Assembly: GCA_965140935.1 (NCBI GenBank)
Contig: CBCSLL010000171.1
Location: 87,492-144,993, forward strand
Source: Rotaria magnacalcarata
Taxonomy: Eukaryota
Direction: 5' to 3'
DNA length: 57,502 nucleotides
Shown here: positions 1,601 to 47,869 of the stretch, one piece after another
Numbering within the stretch: the first letter of the stretch is position 1
Layout of the letters: each line of letters starts with the position of its first letter
Notes under the pieces: generated by a model
Database searches by the model: none
What the model was told of the DNA's origin: nothing
Seen by the model: only the letters and a program-made list of their open reading frames with translations
Translations under genes and position numbers: made by a program

Positions 1601-3561
1601 CTTTATCCAAACCTAAACCTAGACAAACAATTTCACCGCGACGCATTGGCAATGTTGAGGATTTTACCATTCTATACATCAATCAAGATGAAGACAAAGA
1701 TCTGAGTCTTCTTCATTCTACAGTAAATTCTATACGTACAATTAGTGATTCAAGCACATTAGGAACATTGTTATCAGCATGCACAGAAGAAAAGTTCATT
1801 GTTGTGATGTCAATCAATCAAGCCGAAGTAGTTCTTTCCGAACTTCAACAGTACAAATGTATCCAATCAATTTATTTATTATCCAAACAGCCGCATCCAC
1901 CTGAATCGATCAATGGTTATGGTAATGCCATTGAGATTTATCGAAATATTGAATCAGTTTGTGATCATTTAATCAAAACATTGCGTCATATTCCTGCTCG
2001 AGTAATCCCAATGGAAATCACATCGAAAGATAGCGTTTCTGATTTACCATTTACTTACTGTCAACTTTTGAAAGAAACGATTCTTTGTCACGATGATGAA
2101 AGTGATTTAAGAAAAGATATGCTGACATTTTGTCGTACTCATTATGCCCATAATCAAGACGAAGTCCATGAAATCGATGAATATGAAAAATCCTTTATCG
2201 ACACGCATAGTATTCAATGGTATACACGCTATTGTTTCTTGACAAAAATATTATCACGCGCATTTCGCACGCAAGAAATTGATCTTTTATTTAAAATGCG
2301 TTATTTTATTCAATGTCTTCATAAACAAATTCAATCAATTGCTATCAAAGAACCGATCACTACTTATGCTATTTTATATGTTGAACAAGAAATCATTCGA
2401 AACTTTCAAGGAAATATTAATGGATTAGTTTTATTTCGTTCATTCCTTCCGGCAACATTCGAACGGCCCACATTGATGGAATATCAAAATAAAGACACAC
2501 AACGATATCTAATCTTTTCAATTCGACTTGGACCCGACTGTGCAGCTAATATTGAACAGTTGCGTAGCTCTGATTGCAAAATCGATGTTCTGATTAATAT
2601 TGATACTGTTTTTCGTGTAGTTTCCATTGATGAAGGCGAGAATGAAGTTCATACAGTCAACTTAGAGTCTGTTTCGCTCGATGATTCTCATTTTCAACAA
2701 CTAACTGAATCCTTACGAAAACAAATAAAAGCATCAGTGGTCATTTTACAATTAACAAAGCTTCTCGCAGAGACTGATCACTATTGGGAAGGTGATTATC
2801 TTACTGAATCAATTTATCAAGATAAATCTTTTGAGGGCGATGGGACATTGTTGGCTGGTTTAGCGGCTGCGCATCATCTTCTAGGCAATGTCGATGATGC
2901 CAAAAGAGATTTTGAAGCAGCACGTTATCAATTCTTTAAATCGTTACGCGCATTTCAATTATTTTTACCGTATAATCATTCACTGTTATCATCTAGTTAT
3001 AACAATATCGGTAGTATGTTCTATCAAGATGATCATCATGAATGTGCAGTTAAATTTCATGAAATGGCTCTTGAATGTCAATTAAAAGCATCAAGTCCTG
3101 ACATGGATGCTGTAGCAACATATTCGGCAAATATTGGCGCAGTTTATGTAGATCAAAAGAGCTATGCTGCAGCAACGAAACATCTAGAACGAGCAGCGAT
3201 GATCCTAGAGAAGATGTCAATGAAAGACAATCCAAAACGTTTGATTTCCATTTTTCAGAAAATTTCCAACTGCTTTTGGCGCACAGACGAACCCAAGCAA
3301 GCATTGGAATACTATAAGAAAACATTGGATCTTCAACTTAAATTAATAAATCCATTGCCACATCCATTGTCTGTCACTTATTATAATCTTTCAACTGCTT
3401 ATGTACGTATCGGTGACTACGATGAAGCTGTGACATGTGCAGAAAAATCAGTCGAATATTTGCGGATGATCTCAGAGAATCATCCAGAGTTGAAAGAAAA
3501 TCAAGCTCAATTGGAGATTGTTCGTCAAAAGCAATGGCTCAAACAAGTTCTCTCGACATAG
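1601..3561 (+). CDS. Terminal exon of gene A: shared N-terminal alpha/beta domain, then a degenerate (predicted catalytically dead) R-S-E ADP-ribosyltransferase-like domain, then C-terminal TPR repeats.
   Basis: A 653-codon open frame starts after acceptor ttattgcag at 1599-1600 and ends at TAG 3559-3561. It is paralogous to genes B and C in this window (IQSIYLLS~SIYIFCG; WYTRYCFLTKILSRA~WYTRETFIYRMLNAA). At the aligned ART motif positions it reads YVE / PAT / KID where B and C have YRG / STS / E-x-E. Classic TPR-like helices are present (SMFYQDDHHECAVKFHEMALECQLK; AYVRIGDYDEAVTCAEKSVEYL). Confidence 0.75.
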
Positions 3562-5590
3562 GATTGAATACATGTCGATTGATTGACTGAAATTGATTTT
3601 CAACACTATTCACATATTCTTTTTTTTTCTACCATTCATATTATTTTAGATAAATCACGAACTGATGACTACGATAGATAATAGACAGTAAGTGTAAAAG
3701 ATGCGGCAAACAAAGGTTTATCTTAGCAAAACATTTTTCTAGAATTTTAGCGGTTGATCGATCTGCAAAAAAATCTTCTATGAACAAGTCGAAACAACGG
3801 ACAGCATCGAGCGACGTAAGATAAAATAAATGAAAACATTTTCTCGTCATAGATCGCTGACTGCTCTAGAATACATCTGTAAGTATTCCTGAGAATTCTT
3901 GTGCGGTAACAATGATGTATCTTGGACCACAAATGGTAAAATCCAATGGTCCTTACAAGTTTAAAATTCATGCTGATGAAATTTTAATCCTACAATCTCA
4001 CACTACGACTGGCACTAAATCGATTTTCAAAGGATGTCTAAAGCCCAATGGTAGAAACGCATTTATCGATATTCGTTAGCGATGATTATCAACCGTTTTC
4101 TAGATGAATTCACTTTCAAATCATATCGTTTGATTGATCGTCATCTTGCTATTACTATCTATATCAATGGGATCATTGATCAGCACATTTTTGTTTGCTG
4201 TGAAAAAGGCTTCGTTAACCAATCTCATTTTCAAACAAGAAAAAGTTCATGTCAACTTATATCGATTACCGGAGGAATACCATGCGAGACGTAAGACATT
4301 ATCGATCGACTCAATTTTTGTTCTCTGATACTTATGAATTTACATTAGTTGTCAGTCGCATGAATTGATAAAATTTTTCCCAAATGAACTGGAACAGAAT
4401 GATGCCAATCATATCAGACTTCCCAGTGCTCAATCAGTTTCTCGATCGGTGAGTTTCAAAGAGGAATTTTAATCAATAATAGCTGACTCATTCAAGTCAT
4501 CTACGATATCCACCAAAGATACGGCGAAAGAGCTAACGCTTACCGAGTTAGCTTCAAGCCCATTAACAAAGTCTAAACCAGTTAAAGTTAAAACGAAAGA
4601 TAATATCGAACAGACGCCATTACCAGATGCTACTTCGGCTAAATACAATCCGATCAAAGACTCAAGCAACACTGGAGTAATCACACCAACATTGAATACT
4701 ACCATATGACCATCATCATTTACTTAATTTAGGCATCGATAGACAATCAAGGACAGAAAAATGTCAACAAAGAAGTTCATCAACAAGTGAAAAACATAAT
4801 TTGATGAATAAAACGTGTTAATTGATCGATTGTTTCTAGGATAATCAATCGATTGGCAAAACGGAAGTATAGTCAATTTGTAATTCTTGATTTTGTTTGT
4901 CATATGCAGAGTCTCTTCAACTAGACATCTAAAGACGCAGCAACAGGCTCGAAGGAATCCGATCAAATTGTTAGCAAAATTATGAATGAAGACAGAAAAA
5001 GCAAGCATCTCTTTCCAGAGGAATTTTTAATATCGACTGATCAAAGATACGTTCGTTTGTTTTATTTTAGCAAATATTTCATTAGCAGCCAGTCGTAGAA
5101 TGGAGCAATTACTGAACAGCTATTTAAAATTGTTACTTCCACAGACGAAGTCGAATGGAACTGCGGAAAAGGATACAATGAAATCATCGACAAATAATTC
5201 AGACCCAAACAATACGACTGAATCGTTCACTTACTCCAACCCGACAGGTTGGTAGTCGTGTTATCAATCGATTGAAAAGAAATGGTTGTGCAACTATGAG
5301 AAAAAAGGAGTAATGCTGAATTAACGAGGTTCTATACAATAATACTGAACTATAAAAAAAGGTGCTCGATCCAACGGTACTGAGAGCAGAAAAAAATATT
5401 GTTTACCATATGATTATTATGAAATATTTTTTTTCAAGATTAGCACAAGACATACCCTTTTAAAATATACGTAGTTTAGTGCGCATTCGACAAAACTATC
5501 TCATCGCGTATTTATTTTCTTTTAAGTTGAGATACAATATCAAGATATAATAAATATGATAAATTACTATAAAATCATATTACTGAGCCT

Positions 5591-5671
5591 GGGTGTGGCT
5601 GTGACTGTTTGGGTGAGTACATTTTGGTTTCTATTGCCATATCAACCCATCCCCACACCCACACCACACCC
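5591..5671. repeat. Telomeric-repeat-like hairpin H1 (degenerate): G-rich arm gggtgtggctgtgactgtttgggtgag and C-rich arm caacccatccccacacccacaccacaccc.
   Basis: Inverted G/T-rich then C/A-rich arms read directly; complementarity is imperfect. Confidence 0.5.
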
Positions 5672-6125
5672 TATATTATTTGAATTAAGTCAATGTTCAA
5701 TAGGCTCACTTTATTCGTCTCAGTGAGAGCTGCAAAGGCGGCAGTATGTGCTTATAATTTTAAGCACTATTTGCTATTTTTTCCGCTGTTTATCAACAAA
5801 TTGAAAGGACTGACTTATATCATTTTGTATGCCGGAAGACCACCAGTAAAATGACCCTGTTAGATTTATGTTCTATACAAGACCTAAAGATATTATTACG
5901 AACGCACACTAAATACAATACAAATACCAATCTGAGCTCTGATAAGGGTAGATTCATTGTGAGGATTGTGTGTTTTACCTAACCACAGAACTCACGGAAA
6001 CGTTCTGCAATACTCCTTTTTTCTCACAGAAGTTCTCATTGAAAATCACACTGGCGAGTTTCTTCTCATCAGTAGAGCTCAATAGAGAGACGAAAGCTAA
6101 AATTCAATATACAAACTCAACGTCA

Positions 6126-6748
6126 ATGTCAGTCATCGAGAGTAAGGCAGAAAGTTTCGTTCTAATCTGGCTGGATCAAACTATCAAGAAGAACAAAGAT
6201 ACTGTTGATTCTGAACAAAAACTTCGTGCTATTGTCAATTCACTAGTTACTTGCCATACAATTAATGAAGCCATGGATTTGATCGAACAAGTTCAGGATC
6301 AGCAAATTTATTTGATCGTATCTGGCAAACTTGGAAAGCAAATTCTTTCAATGAATCAAATCGTCGACTCTTCTAAATTGAATTCTATCTATATCTTTTG
6401 TGGTGATCAAAACGAAAACAAAGAATTACTTCAACTCTCCAATAAAGTACGCGCCATCTTCGTTGAAATCGATCCATTATGTGCTCGTTTGAAAGACGAT
6501 ACAGAACAAGCGTTGAAAAATCTTCTACCTATGTCTACTACATCAGGAACTTCAGCGGACGAAAAAAATCAAGTGAAATTTCTCTGTTCACAACTTCATC
6601 GTGATCTACTTTTCACTATGGAGTACAGTAATAATGCAAGACTGGAACTCGCTGACTTTTGCTCCAGTGTATACAAATTGAGTCCGACTCAACTCAAGTG
6701 CATCCAGGAATTGAAAACTGAATATCATGCTGGCAAAGCAATCTGGTG
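6126..6748 (+). CDS. Gene B exon 1: shared N-terminal alpha/beta domain (FVLIWLD...IYLIVSG...SIYIFCG), ending ...KAIWW.
   Basis: ATG at 6126 within ORF 5970..6752. The donor tg|GTAAGA at 6749 splits the second Trp codon. This exon is homologous to exon 1 of gene C and to genes A and D. Confidence 0.6.
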
Positions 6749-7073
6749 GTAAGATAAACTTTTGAATGCTTTCATCAAATACTATTCATGATAAGACCTC
6801 ATTGATGAACTGTGTATTTCCTTATTTTAATCCTAACATCCATTTTGTGAAAGGTCAACACTTAGAGACGAAATCCGATCACATAAAAACACTCGCAGCT
6901 TCCGCTTATTAGGACGTATCAAACAGAATTTAAGCATCGCAATGGTTAGAAACGTCCACATATGATGGGTATTGACCTGTTTGAATCTTAATAATTCAGT
7001 TTCATGATAAATGGCAGAGTTGATCTGTATTGAATTACCGGAAATAGATAGGCAAAGATTCTTTGTCTTTTAG

Positions 7074-8523
7074 GTACACTCGACAAACATTTCTATTCAA
7101 AATGCTCAACACAGCTCTTTTGACTCAAGATATATCAATCTTATACAAGTTTCATTTTTTTATCAAAGATTTGCATATGCAACTGGAACAAATGCATAGT
7201 TTATACAAACCATCGTTGGAATCGCGTGTTTTTACTGTTTATCGTGGATTAAATATGTCCTCGGAAGATTTCGAGAAAACAATACGGGGCGAAATCAAGA
7301 ATTTAATTGCATTTGATAGTTTTCTTTCGACTAGTTTAGACGAAAATGTAGCCAAAGAATTTGCTTTGGATAAACAGGATCCTAAAAATGAGTCGGTTGT
7401 TTTTCATATGGAAATCGATGCTGATCAAACGGAACGGCCATTCGCGGATATATCTCGTTGGAGTAACTTTAAAAATGAACGTGAAGTTCTTTTCTCAATC
7501 GGAACTGTTTTTCGAATTGATGATGTAGCAAAGGAAAAAACAATTGATGGCATTTGGACAGTTCACTTAAGTACTGTCAGTGAAAAAGACGAACAATTAC
7601 AAAAGGAAACGCAACAAATACAAAGCACTCTATTAGAATTTTTCCAAGGTGTCCTTCATGCTCAACGCGAGGCTAAAGCTAAGTATGACGAGAAAATTCC
7701 CGGCAGCAATGCTAATGTAGCAAGTATGCATTACAAACAAGGCGAATACGAGGATAGCTTAATTTTCTATGAAAAAGCTTTGGAGGCTTTCAACAACTTA
7801 AAATCACCCGATCCATTGACAAAGGCAGCATATATCAGCAATGTTGCCAAGACACACATGTCATTGGGACACGATGATGCAGCTTTAAATTTATACAAAG
7901 ACGCTTTATATATTCGTCGTCGTTTGTGTGAGCCCAATGATCCGTCATTAATTCATACATTGCATACCATCGGTCATATTTATCGTGGGAAAAAAAATTG
8001 GAATGAAGCTTTTGAACAATATAACGAAGCATTAAAGCTACAACTGTTATCTATTGAGTCTTCTGGTTTATCGGATCCCTCGTCCATCGCTGTTACTTAC
8101 ATTTGTATTGGTAATATTTTTCATCATCAAGAGAGGTATCAAGAGGCGCTAGAATCATTTTTAGAAGCGCTCCAACAGCAACACAAGCATTTGTCGGAAC
8201 AGCATCCTTTTTTAGCATTTCTCTATAATAATATCGGTGCGATGTATTATAAAATTAAAAAATATGATTTAGCTTTGGAAAATCAACTCAAATGTTTGGA
8301 AATCGAATCAAAAGCACTACCAAAAGAGCACAAAACATTTGCTGAAACATATAAAAACATTGCCACAACATATGAAAAACGTCGACAATTCGATGAAGCA
8401 ATTGAATTCACCCAAAAATACATCGATCAATTAAAACTTCACGACTCAAAAGGTAGCAAAGAGCTCAATGATGCGATGCAATTGCTCAAAACAATTCAAA
8501 TAAGTCGAGACAATAGGAAGTAA
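7074..8523 (+). CDS. Gene B exon 2: arginine-type mono-ADP-ribosyltransferase domain with an intact R / S-T-S / E-x-E triad, followed by TPR repeats.
   Basis: Acceptor cttttAG at 7072-73 restores ...AIWW|YTRQTFLFKMLN, matching gene C where the same region is continuous. Motifs read FTVYRG, FLSTSLDE, RPFADIS and NEREVLF. The TPR block runs from about AKYDEKIPGSNANVASMHYKQGEYEDSLIFYEKALEAF to the end. Stop TAA at 8521-8523. Confidence 0.8.
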
Positions 8524-14730: not shown

Positions 14731-14733
14731 TTT

Positions 14734-15946: not shown

Positions 15947-18900
15947 ATGAAACCAGCTACCACCTCTACTTCATTATTATCACCATTCAATGGCAAAACG
16001 ATTGTACTCGAACTTGGCCATGAAATAGGTTTCAAAGCTAAGCAGGAATTGATGAATTATTTACGAGAACAGCAAGCACATATTTCGTATATTTTGACAG
16101 CTAGTGTATGTTTACGTTTTATTTCATCGAACATGTGGTTGGAGTTAACTTTGTTTTAGACTGATTATGTTTTAGCTATGACTAATGTAGATAGCTACAA
16201 GATACGTCGTGCCAAACGGCTTGGCTTACCAGTGGTGAATGTTGAATATGTACACAAATGTCGTTGTTTGCTACCTGGTCAAACACCTATTGATATTAGC
16301 AAATTTATTATCAAGTCAGCAGAAGACCAAGAAAATTTTATAAAAACCGGCACTATTTCCATGGGAGGTATTAGAAGTTCTTATAAAAATCATGTCAGAC
16401 ATCCTTGTTCATTAGAAACTCGAGCAAACGTGACTAAAACAAATAAATTCGATTTGACTAAAATCAAACTGTGGAATTCGGACGACGTCAATTTGCCTCG
16501 TTTCGATGAGCTGACACATTGTGAGATTGGCAGATGGGCGATTTTCAAAGTAGATTTGTATTAATTTCTAGATATTATTCTCTTATATTTCTACTGTTCA
16601 TAACAGGAAACCAATGATAATTTAAGTGTGTTTTTTGTTCTTGAACTTCAAGTTATTCCCGAAGAGTACTACGATCGAACAACGAGTGATTATCAACTAC
16701 GATTTAGATATGAAAAACAGACTATTATTGGCGAAGTTTCACAGCACGATAAAAGAGTATTGGTACAATACGCATTCAGTGATGATCCAAACGAGCAACA
16801 ACAATTGTTTGCGTCGTTCTATTATCGTGTGGCTGCAATGCCACGTATAACACGAATTAATGAGATGTTACCTAACAAATTAGGGTCAAAATTATTATTA
16901 CGCGTATGTAAATGACATTGATAAAAAAGATAATTTATTTTTAAGCAAAGAAGAAATTGTTTTTAGTCTTTATTTACACAACGTATCGACACACAAATAC
17001 TCGATGAAAATGTATGTCAATTGATTGAATCGATTTGGTTAGAATCGATTGGTGATCTCAATAAAATTTTGAGCATATCACCTGAATCGATTACTCTCAG
17101 AACAGTATGTATACACATTCATCTGGCTACATTCATATTAGTTTGTGTTCTAAACAACCAAATAGATCATTGAGGCCGAAGCTGCACTGCTTGAAGTCAA
17201 ATCGACCAACAATCCTGCTGCTGCACTTCGTTTCTATTCATTTATACCACATCGACCAGAGTACAATATTGATCTGATCAAGAATCGCCGAGCGTTGATC
17301 GAAAAAATAGATCTATGTCAAGTATGTGTATTTCTTTTTGAATTGTTTTACTTGATCCGTTACGTGTTCAGATGCTTCGAGATATGCTTACAGTCAACGA
17401 ACTGACCAATTGGAATGTTAAAGCACCAATCGAAGCTAAATATCGAGCATTGAAATGTCATATTGAAACAGTAGCTAGTTCAACAATCGACTTTAGGAAT
17501 ATTGCTAAGCTCATTCAGTCGTCGACTAATAGGTGAGAAAATTTAACATTCTATTTCATAATGATAGCTTATTTGCTTTTTATTTATTAGTGGCGAAGAA
17601 ATTTTAATTCACAACATATTCAGTGTGACTAAACAGACAGATGCACTCAATTTTCGTAGAACACTATCCCACCAATGGCAGCTATTTCATGGATCGAAAT
17701 ACGTCAATATCCTTGGAATTCTTTCACGGTAAAATACTCATTTCGTTCTCTAGACAACATTTATATGGCGGTGGTGTGTGCATTCAGTGGTTTAGTCATG
17801 CCTAAAATTGTAGTGGAACAATTGGGTGTTGAACGTACTGATGTGGGTTGTCTTGGTTATGGGATCTATTTTTCTGATTCTGCGTCGACGTCTTTGAAAT
17901 ATACGACAGCAAGTGCAATACGATCAGGTCGTCGTTTGTTATGCATTTGTCAAGTAGCACTTGGTGAATCAGCCAATTACTATTCATTTTCGCCGACTCT
18001 CACCAAACCTCCTGATGGTTTTCATAGTACACATGGAGTCAAACGAACAGAAGAAAATCAATCAAAGTTCACTGTAACTGAAATTTTTACAAGGACTTAT
18101 TAACTATGATAATATTTCACAAATCTACTTTTTGTTCTATCGAAATAGGATAATGAATATGCAATCTATCAAGTTGAACAACAACGTTTACTTTATATTG
18201 TGGAAGTTTCATGGTCGCCGATTGATGCACCCAATATCACTTTAGAACGATTACCTATTGTTCACCATCAAGAACATGCATTGAAATTAAGTGAGCACGG
18301 TAATGATAAGCTATGCTTTCTTGCTGGAATAAAAAATTGACTAAATTTTTCTCAAAATATTCTAGCTGAAGTTCCATTAACGATGGAGGATGAAATCATT
18401 GAAGTAGCCGAAAGAGACTATGGTTTGATATGTTCATCATCGAGAGACCTGGTACCACTTAAATCATTTCATATTCGTGCTCAAATTGTTGATGTTACAG
18501 TTGAAGTAATTATATCTATGTTTCGATTGAAGTGAAACACTAATTCATCATGTTTCTATCTGATGAAAAGGTTGTTCTCTATCAAGTCTATCATAATACG
18601 AGTTCGATACCGATTGAAGCTAAGTATGTGTTTCCTCTTGATGAAAATTCAACTGTATGTGGTTTTGAAGCACATATTAACAATAAAGTTATCAAAGGTG
18701 TTGTTAAAGAGAAAGAACAAGCTAAATGAGAGTATAGAGAAGCAATTGAAAAGGGTCATGGCGCCTATTTAATGCATCAAGAAGAGGCTCAAGTGTTCAG
18801 CGTTGCGGTTGGTAATTTGCCAGCGCATACTGAAGTTATCATCAAAATAATCTATGTTGCCGAATTAGAAATTGAAAATGGTGACATTATTTTCCGCCTT

Positions 18901-21337
18901 CCAGCTAAAATGACTTCATGGCAATCGAAAAAAGCTGTCGAAACCAAAGATCAATCGATTTTACGATCGATTGGTATTGCCGATGAAAAAGTTGAATTCA
19001 GTTTCAAAGCATCGATTCGAATGCCCTATAAAATAACAAAATTATTTTCACCAACACATCGTCTACGTCGGAAAGTAACCGACTGTATAGCTATGATTGA
19101 ACTTGTTGATAATGTCTTAATTGACCAAGATTTTATTCTTTCGATCACACTCAATAGTCCTAACTTACCTCGAATATCAAATGAAACTTTGTCATTGGAT
19201 GACAACAGTGGAACAACTGACACATCGAACAGCCATCATTCTCAAGCATGCATGCTTACCTTCTATCCACGATTCGAAACATTGACGAATTCGAAAGAAC
19301 AAATTGAAATTATTTTCATTGTTGACGTATCAAATTCAATGGACGGCAGTCATGTACAGCAAGCTAAACAGTTAGCTCATTTGTTTCTTACGAATTTGAA
19401 AGTTGGCGATGAAAATACATATTTCAATGTAATTACTTTTGGATCAGGTAATAAGATGATATTCTACAGCGTTATTGCGCACTTTAAATACTATAACACT
19501 TTGAAAATATCATTTGATTCTGATGAAAGTTCGCACACAAAATCGCCTCATCAATATTTCCTGCATTTTTCTATGCGAACATTGACCTATACCGGTTACG
19601 TGGAGGCACTTTCCGGTCCTCTAGTGCTATATTATGGAAATCAATTGAAATATTATAGTGAAGTAATATTAAGGCATACACAATGGTAAGTTGCCTCAAC
19701 TTAGTTTCTGGTGTTTAGAAACAGGCACCTAAATGTTACAAGATTTTGCACAGTCAAGGAGATCTAATGGATGGTCTTGATCCATGCTAAGTGATATATA
19801 CCATTCGATAGAAAATTTTACGGGGTACAAAATGGCCAGTCTAGATAGGATGGGTCATCATAACCAGTCTAGTTACTTTTTGAAGTACATATAATATTCG
19901 GATCTAAATCGAATGTCTCTACTTTTATTTTACTATTGAAATTGCGACTATTTAGATAACGATGAATGTTTTCCTATGTCAGCACCGACTACAAAAGAAA
20001 ATCTGGATAAAGCCAAACACTATGTTCTAGTTAGTAGTTAATTTTTTGAATCTGATTTTTCTATTGAAATATCCGTTTTCATAAATTCTAGCATGCACGT
20101 GTCCATCGTGGTAATACGGATCTATTTGCTGTTCTTCAACGTTTTTCATTATTACGATCGTCGTTATCGTCGAAATTTGGCCGTCAAATCATTCTCTTAT
20201 CCGATGGACATATTCACGACCTGAATTCAATTCTGGCTCTACTCAAACATCGACCAACTATGCGTCGTGATCGTTTGTTTACATGCTCAATTGGTAATGT
20301 TGCAAACAAACATGTTTTGAAACAGTTAGCTAATGGAGCAAATGGAGGTGGTCTAACAATAGTATTCGATTCAAACTATCGATCGAAGTGGAAAACAAAA
20401 ATATTTAACATCCTCGAACAGGTTCGACAACCGTGTGTTACAAATATATCAATAGATTGGCATGGTTGTTTGAATAAAGAGCAAAAATTCAATACGCAAT
20501 CACCGAAAATGATTCGATCTTTGTTCAATGGAATGCGACTTACTGTTTATCGATTCATAGAAAATTGTCACAAGGCAACATTGGCGGCTACTATTGACGA
20601 ACAAGAATTTGTTACGACTGTATTTAGTAGTGCAATGACAACGACCAGAGGACGTATTTTACACTGTCTAACCACTCGAGCGATTATTGATGATTATGAC
20701 AACGGGCTATTGGATGTCGACGAGAGCGAAAACGAATTGATCAAAGTTCAATACAAACGAGATCTCATCGATCTCAGCATCAAGCATTCTGTTGTCAGTA
20801 CATACACTAGTTTTGTTGCCATCGAAGAACGTGATGTCAACACGGATATAAAAATCCTTCCACCAGGTCAGTAATATAATAGCAGAAAAGTAAAAATGTA
20901 TCTATATGTTTCTTACACTATGGATCCAGAATCTTACTAGCATCAAAATTGAAGTATCTACATCACTATTGAAACATGTACTTTATGTTATAGGTGTTCG
21001 TTTGCTTGAAGTTATGGTGGAACGCGATGTTGACTTACTGCCATACATGGAATGGGATGGTGATGTTTCAAATTTGACTATAATCAAACAGAAATTGGTC
21101 GATGCGCGTATTTCACTCGAATGTGCATCGATTCAGGGAAAAAAAGAAACAATTACTGATATTGAAAAATTTTGTCAAAAAGTTTCCTATCGAGCAGGTG
21201 GTGATGCAAAATTTGCTATCATGATGGCTATCATACGCACATATCGATATTCATTGAACGATTACGATAAAGCAGTTGAATTAAAAGACAAAATGCGAAA
21301 GGGTACGCTAATTAATCTAGGACCAAAATCTGAATAA
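15947..21337 (+). CDS. PARP4: PARP4 / vault poly(ADP-ribose) polymerase orthologue with BRCT, PARP helical and catalytic, VIT and VWA domains plus a C-terminal region. Approximate exons: 15947-16103, 16191-~16372, ~16628-16898, 16967-17104, 17166-17321, 17372-17532, 17591-17728, 17788-18073, 18149-18299, 18366-18515, 18571-19447, 19956-20032, 20092-20866, 20994-21337.
   Basis: An N-terminal BRCT-like segment (KTIVLELGHEIGFKAKQELMNYL...SYKIRRAKRLGLPVVNVEYVHKC) is followed by the PARP signature LFHGSKYVNILGILSR|GLVMPKIVVEQLGVERTDVGCLGYGIYFSDSASTS...ICQVALGE and DNEYAIYQVEQ. The VIT domain reads VVLYQVYHNTSSIPIEAKYVFPLDENSTVCGFEAHINNKV...GHGAYLMHQEEAQVFSVAVGNLP. The VWA domain reads IEIIFIVDVSNSMDG...NVITFGSG...GNTDLFAVL...ILLSDGH. 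The C-terminal parts FVAIEERDVNTDIKILPPG and DVDLLPYMEWDGD match my memory of human PARP4 (FVAVEKRDENESPFPDIP; DVDFLPYMSWQGE). Introns of 50-90 nt were chained by phase. The exon 2-3 region is uncertain. Confidence 0.8.
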
Positions 21338-37348: not shown

Positions 37349-38628
37349 TAAGAGTCATTCTCTGTAGGAATTACGGCCTTTGAGAAGTGACCCACCTCAG
37401 AATTGTCTGAAAATTTCAGGGTATAGGTAAAAAGTTGTCCTGATTCTAAAAATATAATTTTTTTAAAGTTCTCATTGGGAAAAAGAAGTTATGGCTACTG
37501 GACCATGACCAAAATGAGTATATATCGATTTTTTAAAAATTGTCTAAAAATATTTTTGATATGTCAGAAATGTAGAGCTCATCAAGCTGATCATTTTTAC
37601 ATTGGCCATATCTTTCTAAACCTTAAGCTTCAAGCGCTAATTCGTCTCTAAAGTAGACAAATATTAAGAATTTCACCTGTTTCCTCATATTTCACCATTA
37701 AAACTCAGCATAAGTACTACTTATAATACATGGATTTAATCATCTGACTTCCAACTACACGCTCATGTGTTTACCGACTCTTCAAGCCTCTCCCTTCGAA
37801 AGCTATACCGCAAAGAACATCGAAAAAGTGGAAAATAACGCACAACCTTACACTTGTTTCGGATTTTTCTAAAAAGGTATCAAATCAATGACTTTCAATC
37901 TAACAGAATCTTGTTCAGAATAGTCAACTCTACCGGAAACTGTGATTTAACAATTTAGAAAAAAGCGTCAAAAAAAAGTTCCTTTTAATATGGTTAGATC
38001 ACAATATCCAGAAATATCGCTAAAATATTTTGTAAACCGTCGCATTAATTTTTACAAGAGTGGAATAAAAAACCATGTATCACAGATTGTAGCGCGCCAT
38101 TTCTACTATTAGGATCTGTGTTTAGTTTTGTTTCCACTGTTACTTTATGTGGAAAATGTTTGGTAACTTGGAAAAAAAGTGGTACAAAAATAGACAAATG
38201 AGCAAATAATTCACCTTTTACATAGTGAATAAATATTTTCAGTCCAAAACTGATAACGGATTCAGAATCTACGTAGAAATCTACGTGCATAGCGTTAGTC
38301 TCTTACTCACCCACACGTACAACTACCTAACAACTGATAGATGAAAGTGCTTTACACAAGAATATATTTACATGTGTCAAATTTTGTTTTGTGTTCTGTA
38401 CAATGTTTCTTTGCTCCTAGAAGTGTTGTAATGTCCACTGACGGTAGAATGGTCATGTGGGAGAGGAGAAGAAAAAGAGAAAATAGCCAAGTTTCTTGTC
38501 GTTCTGCACACAATTTGACGTTAGAAAGAAAAATGTGTTTTTCTTGAAAATCGTTTGTTTTTGAGGATAATATTATTCACTTTTCAAAATCTTTACAACT
38601 TCTGTTGTTAGTATAAATTATTTATAAT

Positions 38629-39250
38629 TTGAACTCAAAGTTAAACAAAATAATGACAGGTCAAGATTCGAAATTTCAAAAGTGTTCCTTTTATGATCAT
38701 TTACACGATTTTGGTCCAAGTACAAAACCAAAAAGTTTTGACGTGGTTTCAATTGATCAATTGGAATCAAATGTACAACTGGGACTAGATTATGTCTCAG
38801 AATTTGATTTAATTGTTTCACGGTGTGGTGTATCAAATGTGGAAGTAACTGATATTCGAGAAATATGTGCAAAGCATCGATACAAATTCTGAATTTATTA
38901 CAAACTATCTCGTTGTTGTCAGCATCCCAACTGCATCAACAGATGTACTTCTTCAAAACATGCTTCGTTGAATCTGTCACGTTATGTTTCAACGAAATAT
39001 CGGTGCAAGTTTCCCATAAGTACTTTATTTTTAAATGTTAAACTGTTCATTAGTATTTCTGATTATTCGATGTTTTAGAAGGAAATATTTGTATGGTTTG
39101 TCGTGGTCAAGAAGAAAAAGTAATGAGAAGCACAAACTCTGACTCGGGCGGGCTATCTCCAATGGAAGAAGAGGCAGTGGAGGAAACTTTAACAAACTTC
39201 AAACAACGTCCAACAGATTTATACAATTTCCGGAACATTAAGAATCCACA
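38629..39250 (+). CDS. Candidate upstream exons (approx. 38629-38890?, 39076-39250) of the unknown-function gene whose large exon starts at 39734. They contain Cys/His-rich motifs (QKCSFYDHLHDFG; EGNICMVCRGQEE).
   Basis: Exon 39076-39250 ends ...NFRNIKNPHF + a (donor a|GTATGT), which is phase-compatible with acceptor catttAG at 39732-33. The exon joining 38890 to 39076 was not resolved. Confidence 0.3.
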
Positions 39251-39733: not shown

Positions 39734-41631
39734 ATAACGATGAACTAAACAAGTCGTTTTCTGATCTCAGCACCACCACCAGTCAACAAAGTGTTGGGCA
39801 TGTATGGGAAGAAGAACTGTCTGGATCTCAAAAAGCAAACGTAAACGAAATTCGTTATCAAATAAATCCATCTTTGAATCCCATCATGTATCAAGTTAAA
39901 AATTCTCCGTTTACGACAAGCAAAAGAAAACAAAATATGTTAAAACAATCTCTTCTCTCTATTCTAAGGGAGTCCACTTCATTTTTTGCCAAAGCTTATT
40001 GTCCTGGTCATTCCAAAGAACTATTAGATTTATGTGAAGTTCCGACGTTTCTTCGTAAAGAACATGATACATTTTCGAACGATGATAAAATATTACAGTC
40101 GATAAAAGAAATTTATGGTAATAGTACGGACAGTCGATTAAAACTTCAGTTGTTATCTATCGTCGTAAAGAAAACTTACGCGCCTACCGATATTAAATCT
40201 GCATTCAACTGTAATGATTATATGATTACTCAAGCGATACAACATGGGTTAAACAACGGTTCCTGTTCTATTATACCGCGACAACATTTTCATCGTACTC
40301 GAGTCTCGTTTAACAGAATAAAACATTTTATGGATTTTCTATTCGATCATGATTTCGTACAGGACGTTGCGTACGGCACAACAAAAATTCGAACAATAAA
40401 TGAAGCGTTCACAATTCCGCTAGTCGTTAAAAAATGCATAAACTCTCATATCGTCTATGCCTATGATGAATACTGTCAACAAATTCCATTCGAACGTCTA
40501 TCAAAAAATTCATTATATCGTGTATTAAAGGAATGTAAAATGTCTCAACGAACATCGCTTGCTGGTCTTGATGATTACACTGCAGATGGACCAGAAAGCT
40601 TTGATGCACTAGAAAATCTCGTATCATCATTACCAGTTACAAAATCGAAACAGCAACGAATAATAACGCAATTACATAATGCCAAAAGATATTTAAAAAT
40701 CGGATTTTCCTTAAATTTATCGTTACAATCGAGTATTTCTTCACATTGTGTCGACTTTGCTCCTTCGGATTCTAATTCTAAAAGCGATTTTTATATTAAC
40801 TGTAATCATCACCACAGTCATCATTGTGAAAGCTGTGAAAATTTAGTCACAACACTCAGTCAAATAACAGAACTAATTCGGACGTCTAATAATTCAAAAA
40901 AAGAAGAATGGCAATATGATTGCACTGCAAGCATTAACAAAATTTATGAGTGGCAGAAACACCTTGTTCATCATTTTGCTCAATCCAAATCAAAAAATGA
41001 TATTTTGAAGAATCTTAAACCTGATGCAGCATTTTGGCTTAGAGATTGGAGCATGAAGGTATTACCTATAGAGTATCGTGAAAAGTCCAGCAATTGGTTC
41101 GGTAAACGAGGAATGTCACAAGAAGTTGACATTTTTTCTGTAACATCTGGAAGAACAACGAGTGATAATCAACAAATTCCATTAAAATATGTTTATTTGA
41201 CGATGCTTGATCAATCCAGTAAAGATATACACACCGTGGGCGCAGTGCCTGATCAGGTCCTGAAGCAATTTCATATTGATGCTCCACAAGTGAAAAATAT
41301 TTTAAGAAAGGACAATGCAACGTGTTATGCAGATGGTGCACAAATATATCTTACAAAATACATCTGTCAGCAAAACGGCTTTCAGTTGAAACGTATTGAT
41401 TTTAACGAAGCTGGTAAAGGAAAAGATCTATGCGACAGAGAAAGTGCATGCACAAAAACACATCGTGATTATTATGTATCTTCCGGACACAATGTTACTA
41501 CTGCTCTTGAAATGAAACAAGCTGCTAAGTCGAATGGAGGTGTCAAAGACACAAAAGTTGCAGTTGTCAATATCGAAGATAACGGTAAGAATAGTTCTAC
41601 TTTCGAACGCCTGGGTCTAGGCCATTGTTGA
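39734..41631 (+). CDS. Large terminal-region exon (about 630 codons) of a gene of unknown function. It has a His/Cys cluster (CNHHHSHHCESCENL) and a D...(33 aa)...E arrangement (RKDNATCYADGAQ...IDFNEAGKGKDLCD) faintly reminiscent of DDE/DD34E transposase cores.
   Basis: Long open frame. It continues in frame upstream of the annotated ORF start to acceptor AG 39732-33 (…DNDELNKSFSDLSTTTSQQSVGHVWEEEL…). Stop at 41629-41631. No confident homology was recognised. Confidence 0.55.
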
Positions 41632-42109: not shown

Positions 42110-42728
42110 TTGAATTCCGTAAAACAATCATCTCAACAAAGAAAACGATCATCAAAGAAATCGTCAGTTTTATTCTGCTCAGATTCACATTGTGTTTCAA
42201 CATTTGTTGATATCAAAGAACTTGAACAACATTTAAAAACCAACCAACATGGATATTTCCAAGACAATGCTGACTTGCAAAGTCTTCCAATCATAGAAAA
42301 AGCAAAGATTTATTTTATTGGTCATCTTAAAGGTGGTTCCAATATCGCTAATTCAACTCCACACTCTACTACATCGTCTTCTACCTCATCGGTAACGAAA
42401 AAGTCTCGCCCTAATTCGATTTGGATTGCTCAAGGTTGGGCACAACAAAAACGCTCACTAAGAGTTTCGTTATCGATACAACAAACCAAATTCTTAGACC
42501 AATTGTATGAACGTGGCGAAGAATCAAAAAAAAGTCTACCCAGCTGCAGCAGCAGATTTAATGCGAACAGAAATTGATAAAAAGAATAATAAACTATTTC
42601 GTCCTTATCAATACTTGAATAAAAAACGAATTACAAATTATTTTTCGTCGAAAAAAAGAAAATCACTTCAACGTTCATCAAGTGCGGTTGATGAAGTAAG
42701 TATAAGTTTCACCAGCAAGCTGCTTTAA
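42110..42728 (+). CDS. ORFs downstream of the 39734-41631 exon. They contain a C2H2-like zinc-finger-like motif (FCSDSHCVSTFVDIKELEQHLKTNQH) and a basic, Ser-rich tail. They may be separate exons or a separate gene, and there is a frame change between 42110..42577 and 42507..42728.
   Basis: Open frames only. The C-x4-C-x12-H-x5-H spacing fits a C2H2/U1-type zinc finger. The next feature downstream is a telomeric-repeat hairpin at 42790. Confidence 0.3.
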
Positions 42729-43262: not shown

Positions 43263-43336
43263 AGGGTGTGGGTGTCAGGGTGAGGGAGTCTTAATGAGAG
43301 ATTTGCATCCACTCGACACCCACACCCACACCTCAG
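43263..43336. repeat. Telomeric-repeat hairpin H5: agggtgtgggtgtcagggtgaggg ... cgacacccacacccacacctc.
   Basis: Inverted (GGGTGT)n/(ACACCC)n arms with a ~30-nt spacer. Confidence 0.7.
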
Positions 43337-44735
43337 GAATCGAATAGTAATTGTTTTTTTATTAAAGGCATTTTTCATATCGAAATCATTATGTCTTTCC
43401 CGAAGACTCTTTACAATTTGACTTGACTGATCGAATTAAGAAAAGAGGAGAATGAAGGATCATTTTCAGTACGTCTACTCTCAACAGTTATTTCTCGTTA
43501 AAAACAAATTAGGTTGAAGTGAAAACTATATGAACAGATAGAGAAATGTTTTGCCTATCCTGGATATCAAAAACTAATTCAAACGGACGTTATAAATAAA
43601 CGCTGTGAGTTTTTTCCTAAAAGAATAAAACTCGTGGCTGAATCAGGGTCAGTCACTCTACATGTTGATGTAATATTAAGAATAATAAATTCTAATAGAT
43701 ATTTTGCTGTGATACAGATTCTCATGATAGGTCTTCTATATTATTATCTGTATCTTAAATCCAGCAGTATTAATTAAAATAGTTCATACCGATTATTTCA
43801 ATTTTATACATACATGAAAACATCTTGAAAGTTTGGTTTATCATCCTCATGAAAATTAGCTAAAAAGGCTTATCAGCGTAGCCCCTTTGGGGCTAAAATA
43901 TGGAACTCACATATACTGTAACTGCTAGTAGATGATTTAATACAGCCTTATGTAATGAAACATGTTTCGAAGTTTGGATGAATTGAAATGAAATAGTAAA
44001 AAGTTATTGGAAAGAAAGATTAATTTGCTAACTAAGAAAAGTCAAGGTTGCTAAGAAAACATCAAATTTTGTTTAAAAATCAATTTCGATGTCGTTGGAC
44101 ATTTATTTTTTCGGTTTTTTTCGATTTTTATAATCATCAATGAGTGGGTGTATGTAAGAGGAGGGAAGGAACTTGAAAACTGTGACTTAAAACTTACACT
44201 CACTACTTTCTTCAAAAACATATGAGAGTTCCACAAAATAAAAAACAAACAGCTTGATGTATTACTTTCTCTTCTGCTCATCACCATATAAATTTTATTT
44301 ATTTATTCGAATATGATTCAATGCTTCATTATAAGTCAATGTCTCTTTTTGAACGATCCCACCGACTTGGAACCATTAAGAAGCGACTATCAATCTATAC
44401 GGTCCACAAATTTCAAGTATGACTTGCTTGTTTTCTTCATGGCCATCGCTCTATCGATGAATGCTTTACTGTTGTTATGTACAGTCCTTCTCACAAGAGT
44501 GCTTGTTTAAATAAAATTAAAAAGAAACGAAAGAAAAAGGGAGGCCAAACAGACAGAAACGAAATGTAAAACGTTGCTATGCAGGAAAATATAAAAAATG
44601 ACTCCTTCAAAAAAGATGCCACGCAAACATTGTCAGTTGTAAAGAATTCTTTCCAACAGTAACAACACATCATTGGTTTCGCCTATTTTGCCTTGGTAAG
44701 TAAATCTTGTGCATGATGCGAAGTGAAACAGAAAC

Positions 44736-44770
44736 ATATATATATATATATATATATAAATGTATATATG
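44736..44770. repeat. (TA)n microsatellite.
   Basis: Read directly. Confidence 0.9.
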
Positions 44771-44893
44771 ACAGGACTTAATTTTATTCATTCTATTTCG
44801 AGTTTCGAATATAAAATGTTTTTACGGTGTGTGTTTATCACTCGAAAAGATTAAATGTATGTTCACATCGAATTGCATATGAATGTAGACTGG

Positions 44894-44973
44894 GTCTCGA
44901 TAGCTTAGTTGATTAAAACGTCTGGCTAGTTACCAGAGTGGATACTACCTGGGTTCGATTCCCAGTCGAGGTT
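44894..44973 (+). tRNA. tRNA-like pol III gene with atypical features: an 11-nt variable region, a D-stem mismatch and G18-A19 in the D-loop. The anticodon loop is CTAGTTA, so the anticodon would be AGT (Thr) by position. It may be a diverged tRNA, a pseudogene or a tRNA-derived element.
   Basis: Acceptor GTCTCGA pairs with TCGAGGT (5 Watson-Crick + 2 G-U pairs). Anticodon stem TCTGG/CCAGA. T-arm CTGGG-TTCGATT-CCCAG gives a GGTTCGATTCC box-B-like element. The gene is followed directly by the T-rich run tcgTTTTcTTTTc at 44974-44986, consistent with a pol III terminator. Confidence 0.45.
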
Positions 44974-44986
44974 CGTTTTCTTTTCT
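44974..44986 (+). terminator. Oligo-T pol III terminator after the tRNA-like gene.
   Basis: TTTT then TTTT within 13 nt immediately 3' of the acceptor stem. Confidence 0.4.
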
Positions 44987-45410
44987 TTGTGTTCGTTCTT
45001 TCGTGTGATAAACACACGCCGTAAAAAATCATCTTTTATTCGAAATTCGAAACAGAATGAAACCGAAATTATTTTCAATGTTATATACTTAACAACGAGA
45101 CCTAGCTGCTAATCTACCTCGTTATTTTTATTCCGCTTTATTTAAAATAATGTAACAACGGTTTCAATGAGACCCCATTTAGAAAGCACTTATCCACCAG
45201 AAATGGACGGGTTTCAGGGAAATGGCCTGTAAAATTTGGCGATTTCTTCGTCTTTACGAGAAACCAGCTTTTCTTTTTAAAAGCATACCTCTGTGGGACT
45301 ATGGATAAGGTTCAAAGTGAAAACATTTCCACTCACACCCTCTAGTCGTGAATGGCTTGTTTTCTTTTGAACCATTTCTAGACTTTGAATTTGGAGGATT
45401 TTTTCTCTAA

Positions 45411-45878
45411 ATGGGTTGTAACCATGGTAAGTTTGTCACAACAGCAGTCGTTGTCAACCAAAGCAGTGCATCTCCTGCCATCGATATCCAGCACAACGAA
45501 CCACCAGTCGTAACAGGTGAAACTCGTTTCACCACAACAGCTGATAGTACAATCCTTATCAACGATGAAAAGATTAACCTTGAATCGCATCAGTTAGTAT
45601 GGTTAGATGAAAAGACAAGCGAGCAGATTAGTGAAAATATAGTTACCATTGAAAGTCTACGTAAAATTGTCGATTACACGAAGTTATTTGATAATGTTGA
45701 AGAATGTCGGCAGTACCTTGAGAATTCGAAAGATCATAATGACATATTCTTAGTAACGTCTGGTCAGTCAGGAGAGAAGTTGATACCTGAAGTTCATCGT
45801 CTTCAAAATGTGTTGTTAATCTATGTTTATTGTCAAGATAAAGAATATCATGAACAATGGGCATCAAAATATCAAAAG
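45411..45878 (+). CDS. Gene C exon 1: N-terminal MGC (potential N-myristoylation/palmitoylation) motif, then the shared N-terminal alpha/beta domain (LVWLD...IFLVTSG...VLLIYVYC).
   Basis: ATG at 45411 (MGCNHGKFVTT...). Donor AAG|GTAAAAG at 45879 is phase 0. Homologous to exon 1 of gene B. Confidence 0.7.
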
Positions 45879-45943
45879 GTAAAAGAGTTGTGAGCTTTCT
45901 TACGAGAGGGTGACTAGATCTCTTATATTCTGCATGCACACAG

Positions 45944-47869
45944 GTCAAGAAAGTTCATGGGATACTTGATCAATTATTAATGGAGCTTAGAGAAGACGTT
46001 CAAAATTATTCGAAATCTGTAAGAGGTGGCGTATCTAACACCCCGATGAAATCACAAAAAAGCACAGACGACAGTTTCGCCTGGTGCACAAGATTTTGTA
46101 ATATTTTGGTTCATCTGCCCTTTCCTCAAACTTGTCACGATAGACTTGTAAATTTCTTGAAAAACTATTATAAGAACAACGAAGTAGAATTGAAATATGT
46201 AGAAGAATTTCACCGTGACTACACACCAAAGCAAGCAATCTGGTGGTATACACGTGAAACATTTATTTATCGCATGCTTAACGCTGCCCTACGTCAATGC
46301 GACATTAAAACCATCGTTCTATTTGGGTTTTTCATTCAAGATGTATATCATCAATTGAAAGAAGAACATAAAAAGTTCCTACTTTTATACCCAAAAGATT
46401 CGATCATAAAATGTTATCGTGGGCAAGTAATGTCGTATCAAGAACTCCGCCAACTAGACTTCCAAGATGGAGGACCAAAAACAATCGTGAACACCAGTTT
46501 ATTTTCAACATCAATAAATCGCGATGTACCGTTCCGTTTTCTGTCTAATGTAATCAATCTACAACAGTTGGAATATGTCATTTTTGAAATTGAAGTCGAT
46601 ACTCGTTTGCAAACTCGACCCTTTGCTGATATTTCACATTTGAGTGCTTGCTCAGACGAATCTGAAATATTATTTATGATCGGCGCATGGCTTCTTATCG
46701 AAAGAAATGGTGTTTCGTACTCGTATGAAGACAATAAGAAAATTTGGACTATTAAGTCCACCCTAACCAACGACTGGCAACTGAAATACGAGCAATATCT
46801 CGAAATGACGACACAAAAGGAACATTTACAAAAGTGTCTCCGTAGAATATCTTTGCACATTTATCATGCGACACCCAATGACGTAGAGGTGGCTTTCAAC
46901 GAACTACTTGATTTATATCCGTCTGAAAGATGGATTTTAGCACTGAAGAAAGAAAGTCTTGGTGATAATCAAAGCGAAATAAGCCATAACCGTTCAGCCG
47001 CTTTAGAATATTATCAAAAAGCATTAGAAATCTGGTCTGAATACGTTAACGATGATGAATTGAATGCCGATTATGATATTGTTCGTATCTATTGGAAAAT
47101 TGCCACAAATAATGCAGATTCCATAATGGCTATGAAGTACAGTGATTTAGCCATTGTGCATAGCCAACCGGCGTTCGCAAAAGTTAGCACGAATTACGAA
47201 CGATATAGGTTACATGGATGGATGGCTGTTATATATAAAGAAAAAGCAAACATTAGCACTGGGGACAGCGAGAAATCAGAAAATTTGCTAGCGACCATCA
47301 AATACACCGAATTACAACTAAACAATCTGATCGAGTTGCAATGTACCACAGCGGTTGGCAACTATGACAATCTCACTGCTCTTTGTTACATAGAGTTAGG
47401 TGCCCTTTATCAATCCGTATTGAAATATAACGAAGCAATAACAAACTATGGAAAGGCTCTGGAATTTGAGCTGGCGAAGCTAGACCCTGATTATGAGAGA
47501 ATCGATCAACTTACTAGGGAATTAGTTGAAATTTACAGTGAAAAGAAAAATGATTATAATGCCGCATTTAAGTATGAATCATTAAACCATGAGTATTTAT
47601 TAAAACAATACATGGCAAATCCAACAAAGGATTATCTTCGCGAAGCCAATAGGAACTATACACTAGCCTGTAGTTACGCTGCCTTAGCTACGATTTGTCG
47701 GAAAATGCAGCGATATGATTTAGCGGCTGAAAATTTAACCAAAACAATCGAATCATATGGGAACAGTTTGCACTATGATAGGTACGCATTAATGTCAGCC
47801 CACGAAGATGATTTGATGGAAATAAACAAATTGTTAGCATCATCGAAGTCTGCAGAACCAACATCATAA
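45944..47869 (+). CDS. Gene C exon 2: arginine-type ADP-ribosyltransferase domain with an intact R/STS/ExE triad, followed by TPR repeats.
   Basis: Acceptor cacacAG at 45942-43. Motifs read AIWWYTRETFIYRMLNAAL, CYRGQ, SLFSTSINRD, RPFADISHLS and SDESEILF. TPR-like helices run across the C-terminal 330 aa (…SAALEYYQKALEIWSEY…LGALYQSVLKYNEAITNYGKALEFE…). Stop at 47867-47869. Confidence 0.8.
   Translation, partial: VKKVHGILDQLLMELREDVQNYSKSVRGGVSNTPMKSQKSTDDSFAWCTRFCNILVHLPFPQTCHDRLVNFLKNYYKNNEVELKYVEEFHRDYTPKQAIWWYTRETFIYRMLNAALRQCDIKTIVLFGFFIQDVYHQLKEEHKKFLLLYPKDSIIKCYRGQVMSYQELRQLDFQDGGPKTIVNTSLFSTSINRDVPFRFLSNVINLQQLEYVIFEIEVDTRLQTRPFADISHLSACSDESEILFMIGAWLLIERNGVSYSYEDNKKIWTIKSTLTNDWQLKYEQYLEMTTQKEHLQKCLRRISLHIYHATPNDVEVAFNELLDLYPSERWILALKKESLGDNQSEISHNRSAALEYYQKALEIWSEYVNDDELNADYDIVRIYWKIATNNADSIMAMKYSDLAIVHSQPAFAKVSTNYERYRLHGWMAVIYKEKANISTGDSEKSENLLATIKYTELQLNNLIELQCTTAVGNYDNLTALCYIELGALYQSVLKYNEAITNYGKALEFELAKLDPDYERIDQLTRELVEIYSEKKNDYNAAFKYESLNHEYLLKQYMANPTKDYLREANRNYTLACSYAALATICRKMQRYDLAAENLTKTIESYGNSLHYDRYALMSAHEDDLMEINKLLASSKSAEPTS

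Follow-up and report, generated by a model that had tools for sequence, protein, structure and literature searches.

The closest described relatives of the proteins reported here are enzymes of the R-S-E clade of ADP-ribosyltransferases (ARTs). In the bacterial binary toxins Vip2, iota and CDTa, a duplicated, catalytically dead N-terminal ART domain acts as an adaptor. The vertebrate ecto-ARTs (ARTC1-5, Pfam family PF01129) belong to the same clade and are secreted or glycosylphosphatidylinositol-anchored, single-domain, extracellular enzymes; beyond a handful of such ecto-enzymes, hardly any R-S-E ARTs are known from animals. Here we describe genes of the bdelloid rotifer Rotaria magnacalcarata in which an R-S-E ART domain stands between a predicted receiver (REC)-like N-domain and C-terminal tetratricopeptide repeats (TPRs). 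They lie in a 57,502-nt stretch of contig CBCSLL010000171.1 (assembly GCA_965140935.1, positions 87,492 to 144,993 of the forward strand), hereafter the window, which is AT-rich (~34% GC) and carries eukaryotic genes with short GT-AG introns.

Three genes of the window, A, B and C, have this architecture in common: an alpha/beta (REC-like) N-domain, an R-S-E ART domain and a TPR array. A preliminary description, made from the letters alone, had proposed that they are paralogs, which tblastn and an ART profile confirmed: with B and C as queries against the window, the three genes aligned over their whole length at 20-25% identity (E 1e-13 to 1e-31). On these alignments the paralogy is real, well past chance, and old. 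A, B and C are distant paralogs, 22-25% identical. The same tblastn search also picked up the N-terminal part of a fourth locus, termed gene D and treated below. Profile searches of the window found no ART-like copy other than A, B and C, and no family member at all between 11.3 and 45.4 kb, which makes up ~34 kb of the span previously ascribed to the family. The repeats are of the kinesin light chain type (TPR_10/TPR_12); Pfam TPR_12 scored 132.9 bits over four stretches in B (E 4.6e-39), 73.8 bits over three stretches in A (E 1.3e-20) and 36.6 bits over a single stretch in C. The genes and their parts are as follows.

1 to 3561, + strand: gene A (P0121, 1054 amino acids), 5' end beyond the window; DUF4590, low-complexity linker, REC-like domain, predicted pseudo-ART domain and TPR array.
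1601 to 3561, + strand: last exon of gene A, acceptor AG at 1599-1600; matches the C-terminal 652 residues of P0121 and is essentially identical to them.
Within this last exon, + strand: REC-like domain ~1642-2007, then a helical linker, predicted pseudo-ART domain ~2212-2718, TPR array ~2719-3558.
3912 to 4050 and 4104 to 4290, + strand: DUF4590 exons upstream of gene B, with a 53-nt GT-AG intron between them; omitted from the NCBI 690-residue model.
6126 to 6748 and 7074 to 8523, + strand: exons of gene B as annotated (P0001, 690 amino acids), intron 6749-7073; 100% identity to the NCBI R. magnacalcarata protein.
Within gene B, + strand: REC-like domain 6147-6500, ART domain ~6738-7605 (spanning the intron), TPR array ~7606-8520, placed by Pfam, motifs and AlphaFold (AF2) models.
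45411 to 45878 and 45944 to 47869, + strand: exons of gene C (797 amino acids), 65-nt GT-AG intron 45879-45943; the spliced translation is uninterrupted.
Within gene C, + strand: REC-like domain ~45579-45900, ART domain ~46235-46777, degenerate TPR region ~46778-47866; the protein has an MGC start.

The central domain of A, B and C is an R-S-E ART. The second exon of B exceeds the curated Pfam cut-offs of both the ART family (PF01129, 32.9 bits for a cut-off of 22.3) and ADPrib_exo_Tox (PF03496, 27.1 bits for a cut-off of 23.4). A hidden Markov model (HMM) of the ART domain, built from homologs without any window sequence and then run on the three genes, detected each of them (B 2.3e-78, C 1.5e-39, A 1.3e-24). 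When a profile of twelve family ART domains was compared with the PDB, the best match was the Vibrio Vis toxin (3.2e-10), followed by Lmo0066, SpvB, CdtA, iota Ia, VsdC, XopAI, HopU1 and Vip2. The AF2 model of the B domain (predicted local distance difference test, pLDDT, 90; predicted template modelling score 0.85) shows the ART fold, a helical N-subdomain with a split beta-sandwich core, and Foldseek searches with this model returned Vis, ExoS/T, Certhrax, HopU1, Plx2a, C3bot, CDTa, iota and Vip2 (E 3e-9 to 3e-6). Pfam, the profile and the AF2/Foldseek comparison thus all point to an ART, which removes the concern, raised in the preliminary description, that the domain might have another fold.

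The catalytic signature is complete in B and C, as had been reported. In B it reads VYRGL (arginine of beta1), FLSTS (S-T-S of beta2) and EREVLF (E-x-E of the ADP-ribosylating turn-turn, ARTT, loop), in C CYRGQ, LFSTS and ESEILF, and in both genes RPFADIS stands just upstream of the E-x-E loop. These columns align with the motifs of the Vis toxin and with the family profile, and the motifs are also intact in the orthologs of B. The bacterial R-S-E (C2/C3-like) toxins, namely Vis, C3bot, iota Ia, CDTa, Vip2, ExoS and HopU1, share fold, arginine, S-T-S and E-x-E with the rotifer domain and are its best sequence and structure matches; unlike them, however, the rotifer proteins are endogenous, intron-bearing, devoid of a secretion or translocation apparatus, and fused to a receiver-fold domain and TPRs. 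The resemblance to the ecto-ARTs includes the shared E-x-E, and B and many of its relatives pass the PF01129 cut-off. Unlike the ecto-ARTs, the rotifer proteins have no signal peptide recognisable by eye, begin with DUF4590, the REC-like domain or a myristoylation motif, and carry TPR arrays, and are predicted to be cytosolic or to lie at the inner membrane face.

In gene A, all the catalytic residues are replaced: the motif columns read TYAIL, FLPAT and KIDVLI in place of the arginine, S-T-S and E-x-E, and there is a deletion at the position of RPFADIS. The earlier reading that A has lost all three motifs thus stands, except that the site of the arginine is YAI, four residues before the YVE that had been pointed out; the motif loss and the TPR_12 match likewise agree with a predicted pseudo-enzyme that keeps its TPR array. 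The extent of the gene, previously given as 1601-3561, had to be revised, since position 1601 only starts the last exon and further exons lie upstream, in and beyond the window. Gene A corresponds at ~100% identity to P0121, an R. magnacalcarata protein named 'DUF4590 domain-containing protein' in UniRef, in which Pfam DUF4590 scores 52.9 bits; tblastn of the Adineta orthologs places this part at ~190-473 of the window. The N-domain HMM, which has gene A itself among its sequences, matched the gene at 1.1e-64.

Orthologs of gene A were found in Rotaria sp. Silwood1 (84% identity), Rotaria sp. Silwood2 (75%), Adineta steineri (70%), A. vaga (64%) and A. ricciae (61%), and also on several metagenomic rotifer contigs. 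The arginine, S-T-S and E-x-E are missing in all of these orthologs; P0122, P0125, P0130, P0135, P0138, P0140, P0143 and P0157 are the orthologs and close relatives that lack them. The pseudo-ART domain of A is 66-87% identical to those of its orthologs, the corresponding values for the active ART domain of B being 66-74%, and it is as conserved as A's own TPR array. Gene A is thus predicted to encode a catalytically dead but constrained and conserved pseudoenzyme rather than to be a decaying copy.

The pairing of A with B is conserved as well. In A. vaga, the orthologs of A and B carry neighbouring locus tags (I4U23_003986 and I4U23_003985), and an independent contig of 10.9 kb (L002) carries, on one strand, a dead A ortholog (61% identity) and immediately 3' of it an active B ortholog (60%). 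Dead A and active B are neighbours in Rotaria, in A. vaga and on L002; the tandem, with its A-then-B order, is thus older than the Rotaria-Adineta split and has been retained since. Its retention, together with the conservation of the pseudo-ART domain, points to a non-catalytic function of A tied to B. The logic would be that of Vip2, iota and CDTa, where a dead and an active ART domain are joined in one chain, but here they are encoded by separate tandem genes. The preliminary description had seen in this locus a birth-and-death family with dead and truncated members side by side; this picture did not hold, as A is a conserved dead lineage in tandem with B, and D, described below, belongs to a separate family.

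Contig L002, which is of metagenomic rotifer origin, carries between 335 and 10303 three same-strand paralogs, g1, g2 (the dead A ortholog) and g3+g4 (the active B ortholog). The paralog g1, located further 5', has kept its arginine while its S-T-S and E-x-E are degenerate, and a DUF4590 exon is found upstream of it. A conserved cluster of three genes may therefore include the A-B pair, and its first member would lie 5' of the window.

Gene B had been delimited at 6126-8523. This interval does translate to the annotated 690 residues with a 100% match, but the DUF4590 exons lie upstream of it, at 3912-4290. The reading frame of the annotated gene is open upstream to ~6066, in line with the orthologs. 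The open reading frame (ORF) spliced from the two upstream exons contains no stops, is 63-79% identical to the N-termini of the Adineta orthologs P0002, P0004 and P0005, and scores 54.6 bits on Pfam DUF4590 (cut-off 27). The Adineta orthologs of B are 940-1010 residues long and begin with DUF4590, an arrangement shared by three orthologs, and in tblastn their N-termini are collinear with 3870-5243 of the window, the matches at ~4925-5243 being of low complexity. Since the upstream exons score on DUF4590 and are collinear with the Adineta orthologs, the NCBI model of B is probably truncated at its N-terminus, and the full gene would encode ~950-1000 residues as in Adineta. DUF4590 is the sole recognised domain of ERICH3 (C1orf173), a ciliary protein (PMC6848114). 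A, B and their orthologs have this domain at their start and share it with ERICH3, the rest of the protein being unrelated; we take DUF4590 as a localisation lead for A and B and nothing more, and a ciliary role is likewise only a lead.

Gene C differs at its N-terminus, which reads MGCNHGK. As had been suggested, this is a myristoylation/palmitoylation-type start, and it is conserved: of its nearest relatives, those beginning at residue 1 all have an MGC start, namely P0213 of Didymodactylos carnosus (39% identity, MGCKHSK), P0214 of Rotaria sp. Silwood1 (46%, MGCNQTK) and P0245 (49%, MGCKHSN). More broadly, an MG start is found in 16 of the 97 top gene C relatives with a complete N-domain, many of them with MGxxxS/T. 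The Met-Gly start, the small residue at position 6 and Cys3, all kept in relatives, are those of an SH4-like sequence. Given the MGC and MGxxxS/T starts of the relatives, an SH4-like myristoylation/palmitoylation signal appears to be a conserved feature of the gene C clade. The N-domain HMM match in gene C runs unbroken across the intron; the exact protein had no identical entry in the protein collection searched.

The N-domain itself had been predicted to be an alpha/beta domain, and this prediction can be made more specific. It matched no Pfam family at E<=1, Response_reg included. In an AlphaFold model (pLDDT 84) computed from an alignment of 31 family sequences, a beta/alpha domain with five strands precedes a helical bundle, which leads into the WWYT motif. 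Conservation is seen in beta1, which closes with W-L-D, in beta4 (S-I-Y-I-F-C) and in beta5 (K-[IV]-[KR]-G-[VI]). After beta3, where a receiver domain has its phospho-acceptor Asp, the consensus is I-x-S-G-x-L-G; an Asp occurs in 5 of the 31 sequences, at the Gly position. The model thus has the (beta/alpha)5 fold of CheY, whereas the phospho-acceptor Asp (S-G in most members) and a match to the Response_reg profile are lacking. On this model the N-domain is a receiver-fold, pseudo-receiver-like domain, a relative of the two-component REC/CheY domains by fold only, and we do not assign it to the REC family. We know of no histidine kinase context for receiver domains in animals.

Gene D consists of two genes on the minus strand.

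11292 to 10776 and 10721 to 10210, - strand: exons of gene D1 (342 amino acids), 54-nt intron 10775-10722; 100% identity to P0196.
10054 to 9518, - strand: gene D2 (178 amino acids, UniProt A0A816PV04); the exact sequence is annotated in R. magnacalcarata and ends ...YFWWEANR.

D1 contains one clear REC-like N-domain (HMM 7.4e-17, residues 11-133) followed by a second, degenerate copy, which is significant in the A. ricciae ortholog P0198 (2.9e-6); its orthologs are 89% (R. socialis) and 34% (A. ricciae, same length) identical. D2 contains one weak REC-like N-domain (HMM 2.9e-5 / 6.5e-4, HMM positions 35-104 only) and has a cluster-mate of >=90% identity in R. socialis. Profile searches found neither ART nor TPR in D1 or D2. 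The earlier view of D as an N-domain without the rest is therefore right about the domain content, but not about its origin, since there are two genes with orthologs of their own and not one truncated ART gene. D had also been said to stop exactly at the WW|YTR boundary where the ART domain would start. We rejected this: the family HMM alignment of D2 stops ~60 residues before the WW, which stands four residues before the D2 stop, and the D-family relatives P0199-P0203, with two or three REC-like domains, share the C-terminal end '...HILANLGEYQ' and have no WW. We regard the terminal WW of D2 as coincidental, a remote relation being conceivable. These comparisons make D a conserved family in its own right, whose members consist of REC-like domains alone, and not an ART-TPR gene cut short. 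D1 might be linked to D2 through an in-frame GTCTCC donor, but this donor is weak, and we do not claim D2 as a missing third domain of D1, as BLASTP against the C-terminal domains of D-family homologs gave E 0.35-1.2. In one D-family protein of Rotaria sp. Silwood2 (P0202), the REC-like domains appear fused to a ubiquitin-conjugating E2 domain (PF00179), either a real fusion or a merged gene model.

The genes of the window belong to a very large family. An exhaustive phmmer search with gene C of 1.84 billion cluster representatives (50% identity clusters) gave 4,722 matches at E<=1e-3, 2,961 at E<=1e-10 and 692 at E<=1e-30. All named matches sampled are bdelloid (Rotaria, Adineta, Didymodactylos), and the unnamed ones come from metagenomes and sequencing-run assemblies. 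We found no description of the family in the full-text literature, comparative-genomics and bdelloid papers included (most subscription journals lie outside its coverage). The statement that this is not a well-described metazoan family is to that extent correct, but UniProt rules already name many members automatically 'NAD(P)(+)--arginine ADP-ribosyltransferase' or 'ADP ribosyltransferase domain-containing protein', because they pass the PF01129 cut-off. A scan of bacteria and archaea with a single peptide pattern, one genome per species, returned one locus only, a result compatible with the existence of bacterial relatives. This locus (L001, 1-1953) is a 1.9-kb AT-rich contig with a typical rotifer REC-like and ART gene, binned in an 'uncultured Chitinophaga sp.' metagenome-assembled genome of a GTDB-based collection, and is most likely rotifer contamination. 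Among the family members, a metagenomic protein of 649 amino acids (P0176) has, after a single REC-like domain, two complete ART modules, and it lacks TPRs; ART duplication appears to occur inside a single chain too.

Between and beyond the family members, the window contains other ORFs, all on the + strand. That at 18772-19689 has a von Willebrand factor A domain (PF00092, 31.6 bits) and is unrelated to the ART-TPR family. A 585-residue Cys/His-rich ORF without a Pfam match (39874-41631) is followed by a 155-residue ORF with a C2H2-like motif (42110-42577), and the two are possibly a transposon-derived gene between family members. At 50373-51465, 2.5 kb 3' of gene C, an ORF with 'RLYHGTDVEALKKICQYGI...GTDFGAGFYVTD' matches the Pfam PARP catalytic domain below threshold (23.4 bits, cut-off 26.7) and DUF3990 weakly; it may be a second, H-Y-E-type ART-like gene or fragment. 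Weak N-domain-like matches at 37946-38020 (+ strand, E 0.036) and 38621-38935 (- strand, E 0.26) are probably due to chance, possibly eroded fragments.

How might these proteins work? The account we lean towards, by a modest preference, is that B and C are intracellular arginine mono-ARTs which recruit partners through their TPRs and are regulated through the REC-like domain, with A as a non-catalytic partner, C bound to membranes and D1 and D2 as free modules. B and C would be active NAD+-dependent, arginine-directed mono-ADP-ribosyltransferases inside the cell; arginine specificity is suggested because of the E-x-E, by analogy with iota, C2, Vis and the ecto-ARTs, and an intracellular placement because no signal peptide is apparent by inspection. 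The TPR array would recruit or sense a protein partner or substrate, and the REC-like domain may serve as a regulatory or oligomerisation module. Location would be set by features of each subfamily, C being probably held on membranes through N-myristoylation of Gly2 and palmitoylation of Cys3, and A and B carrying the ERICH3-type DUF4590. A would most likely act without catalysis, as a partner, adaptor or regulator either of B or of the pathway that both share; the dead ART domain of Vip2, iota and CDTa provides a precedent. D1 and D2, as free proteins, may regulate this module or interact with it.

Several points weigh against this account. It is by analogy that the members are taken to be transferases rather than NAD+ glycohydrolases and to be specific for arginine, and we infer both the binding of substrates by the TPRs and the interaction of A with B. 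The REC-like assignment holds at the level of the fold, at 6-17% identity. The fusion of the DUF4590 exons to B in Rotaria is deduced from the Adineta gene models and from collinearity, while the NCBI model starts at 6126. The TPR region of gene C is degenerate, with weak matches (TPR_12 5.4e-9, one Pfam stretch). Finally, that A, B and C have no signal peptide was judged by eye from their N-termini, which read MMYLGPQ... (DUF4590) or MSVIESK... in B, MGCNHGK... in C and MTSVRLSRRREP... in A (P0121), all of them multidomain proteins with TPRs.

Other explanations were weighed against it. The genes could form an innate-immune or conflict repertoire, a bdelloid sensor-effector arsenal in which the TPRs sense non-self or perturbation, the ART is released as a toxic or signalling effector, and the window is a site of birth and death. 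As in NLR/STAND-TPR and bacterial TPR-effector systems (nucleotide-binding leucine-rich repeat proteins and signal-transduction ATPases with numerous domains), an enzymatic effector is joined to C-terminal TPRs and the expansion is large and lineage-specific, with all named matches in bdelloids; the ART domain is nearest to bacterial toxins, and many family members have long near-perfect TPR_12 arrays. Moreover, the Gene Ontology term 'protein ADP-ribosylation' is enriched among genes under-expressed in spaceflight-stressed A. vaga (PMC12220480), which the authors credit to poly(ADP-ribose) polymerases (PARPs). Unlike NLR/STAND proteins, however, the rotifer proteins have no nucleoside triphosphatase (NTPase) switch domain (NACHT/NB-ARC) among the Pfam matches of A, B, C and their orthologs, and the loci here evolve conservatively: the A and B orthologs are 59-89% identical between Rotaria and Adineta with synteny kept, those of D1 are at 89% and 34%, and the TPRs are at most modestly less conserved than the ART domain. 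That Rotaria and Adineta each have orthologs of A, B and D1 speaks against an arms race here, and the family goes unmentioned in a fungal-infection paper on bdelloids. We therefore think the immune explanation unlikely for the family at large, although the size of the family keeps it alive for the wider expansion. A more far-reaching and still less probable version would make the whole REC-like, ART and TPR family a bdelloid intracellular surveillance system, an analogue of NLRs without the NTPase, in which TPRs detect cues, the pseudo-receiver controls assembly and arginine ADP-ribosylation is the output, A-B-like pairs acting as sensor/executor heteromers and D1/D2-like proteins as regulators.

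Descent from a horizontally acquired bacterial toxin cassette is a further possibility. An ART-TPR core would have been domesticated and amplified, its present function being derived from an interbacterial or host-targeting toxin. A bacterial-toxin origin is plausible because the nearest solved structures, and the nearest sequences, are all bacterial R-S-E toxins; bacterial conflict proteins often carry TPR_10/TPR_12 arrays of the kinesin light chain type, the weak matches at the tail of the search being bacterial CHAT-, ATPase- and kinase-TPR proteins, and extensive horizontal gene transfer is known in bdelloids (PMC11258130). Yet the genes contain spliceosomal introns, the Pfam animal ecto-ART model scores slightly above the exotoxin model, and the single-pattern scan of bacteria and archaea, a weak negative, gave only the likely contaminant locus; taken as the explanation of present function, such a cassette seems to us rather doubtful. 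That A and D are broken or mis-assembled pieces of intact ART-TPR genes, a doubt which the preliminary description itself had raised, is highly improbable. The NCBI models are imperfect here, that of B lacking the DUF4590 exons, and D1 and D2 could be one gene or two. But A is a single long open exon, and its full-length orthologs, from at least six species, all lack the catalytic residues; D1 and D2 are found with exactly the same sequence in several assemblies and contigs and have orthologs of equal length; and the ~1 kb between the end of D2 and the B stop holds no ART-like remnant.

R-S-E ART chemistry is thus found in thousands of predicted intracellular multidomain proteins, confined to bdelloids as far as sampled, and comes here with a receiver-fold domain not described before and with an enzyme/pseudoenzyme pair of genes that has been stable in evolution. 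The locus offers several entry points: B versus A as an active/dead pair, C as a predicted lipid-anchored form, and D1 and D2 as free REC-like modules. Intracellular ADP-ribosylation of arginine, as modelled above for B and C, could open this kind of signalling to study in animals. The findings also bear on the purpose of one of the largest bdelloid gene expansions and on its possible origin from a bacterial toxin. If the surveillance interpretation were true, the family could help to explain how an anciently asexual animal copes with pathogens.

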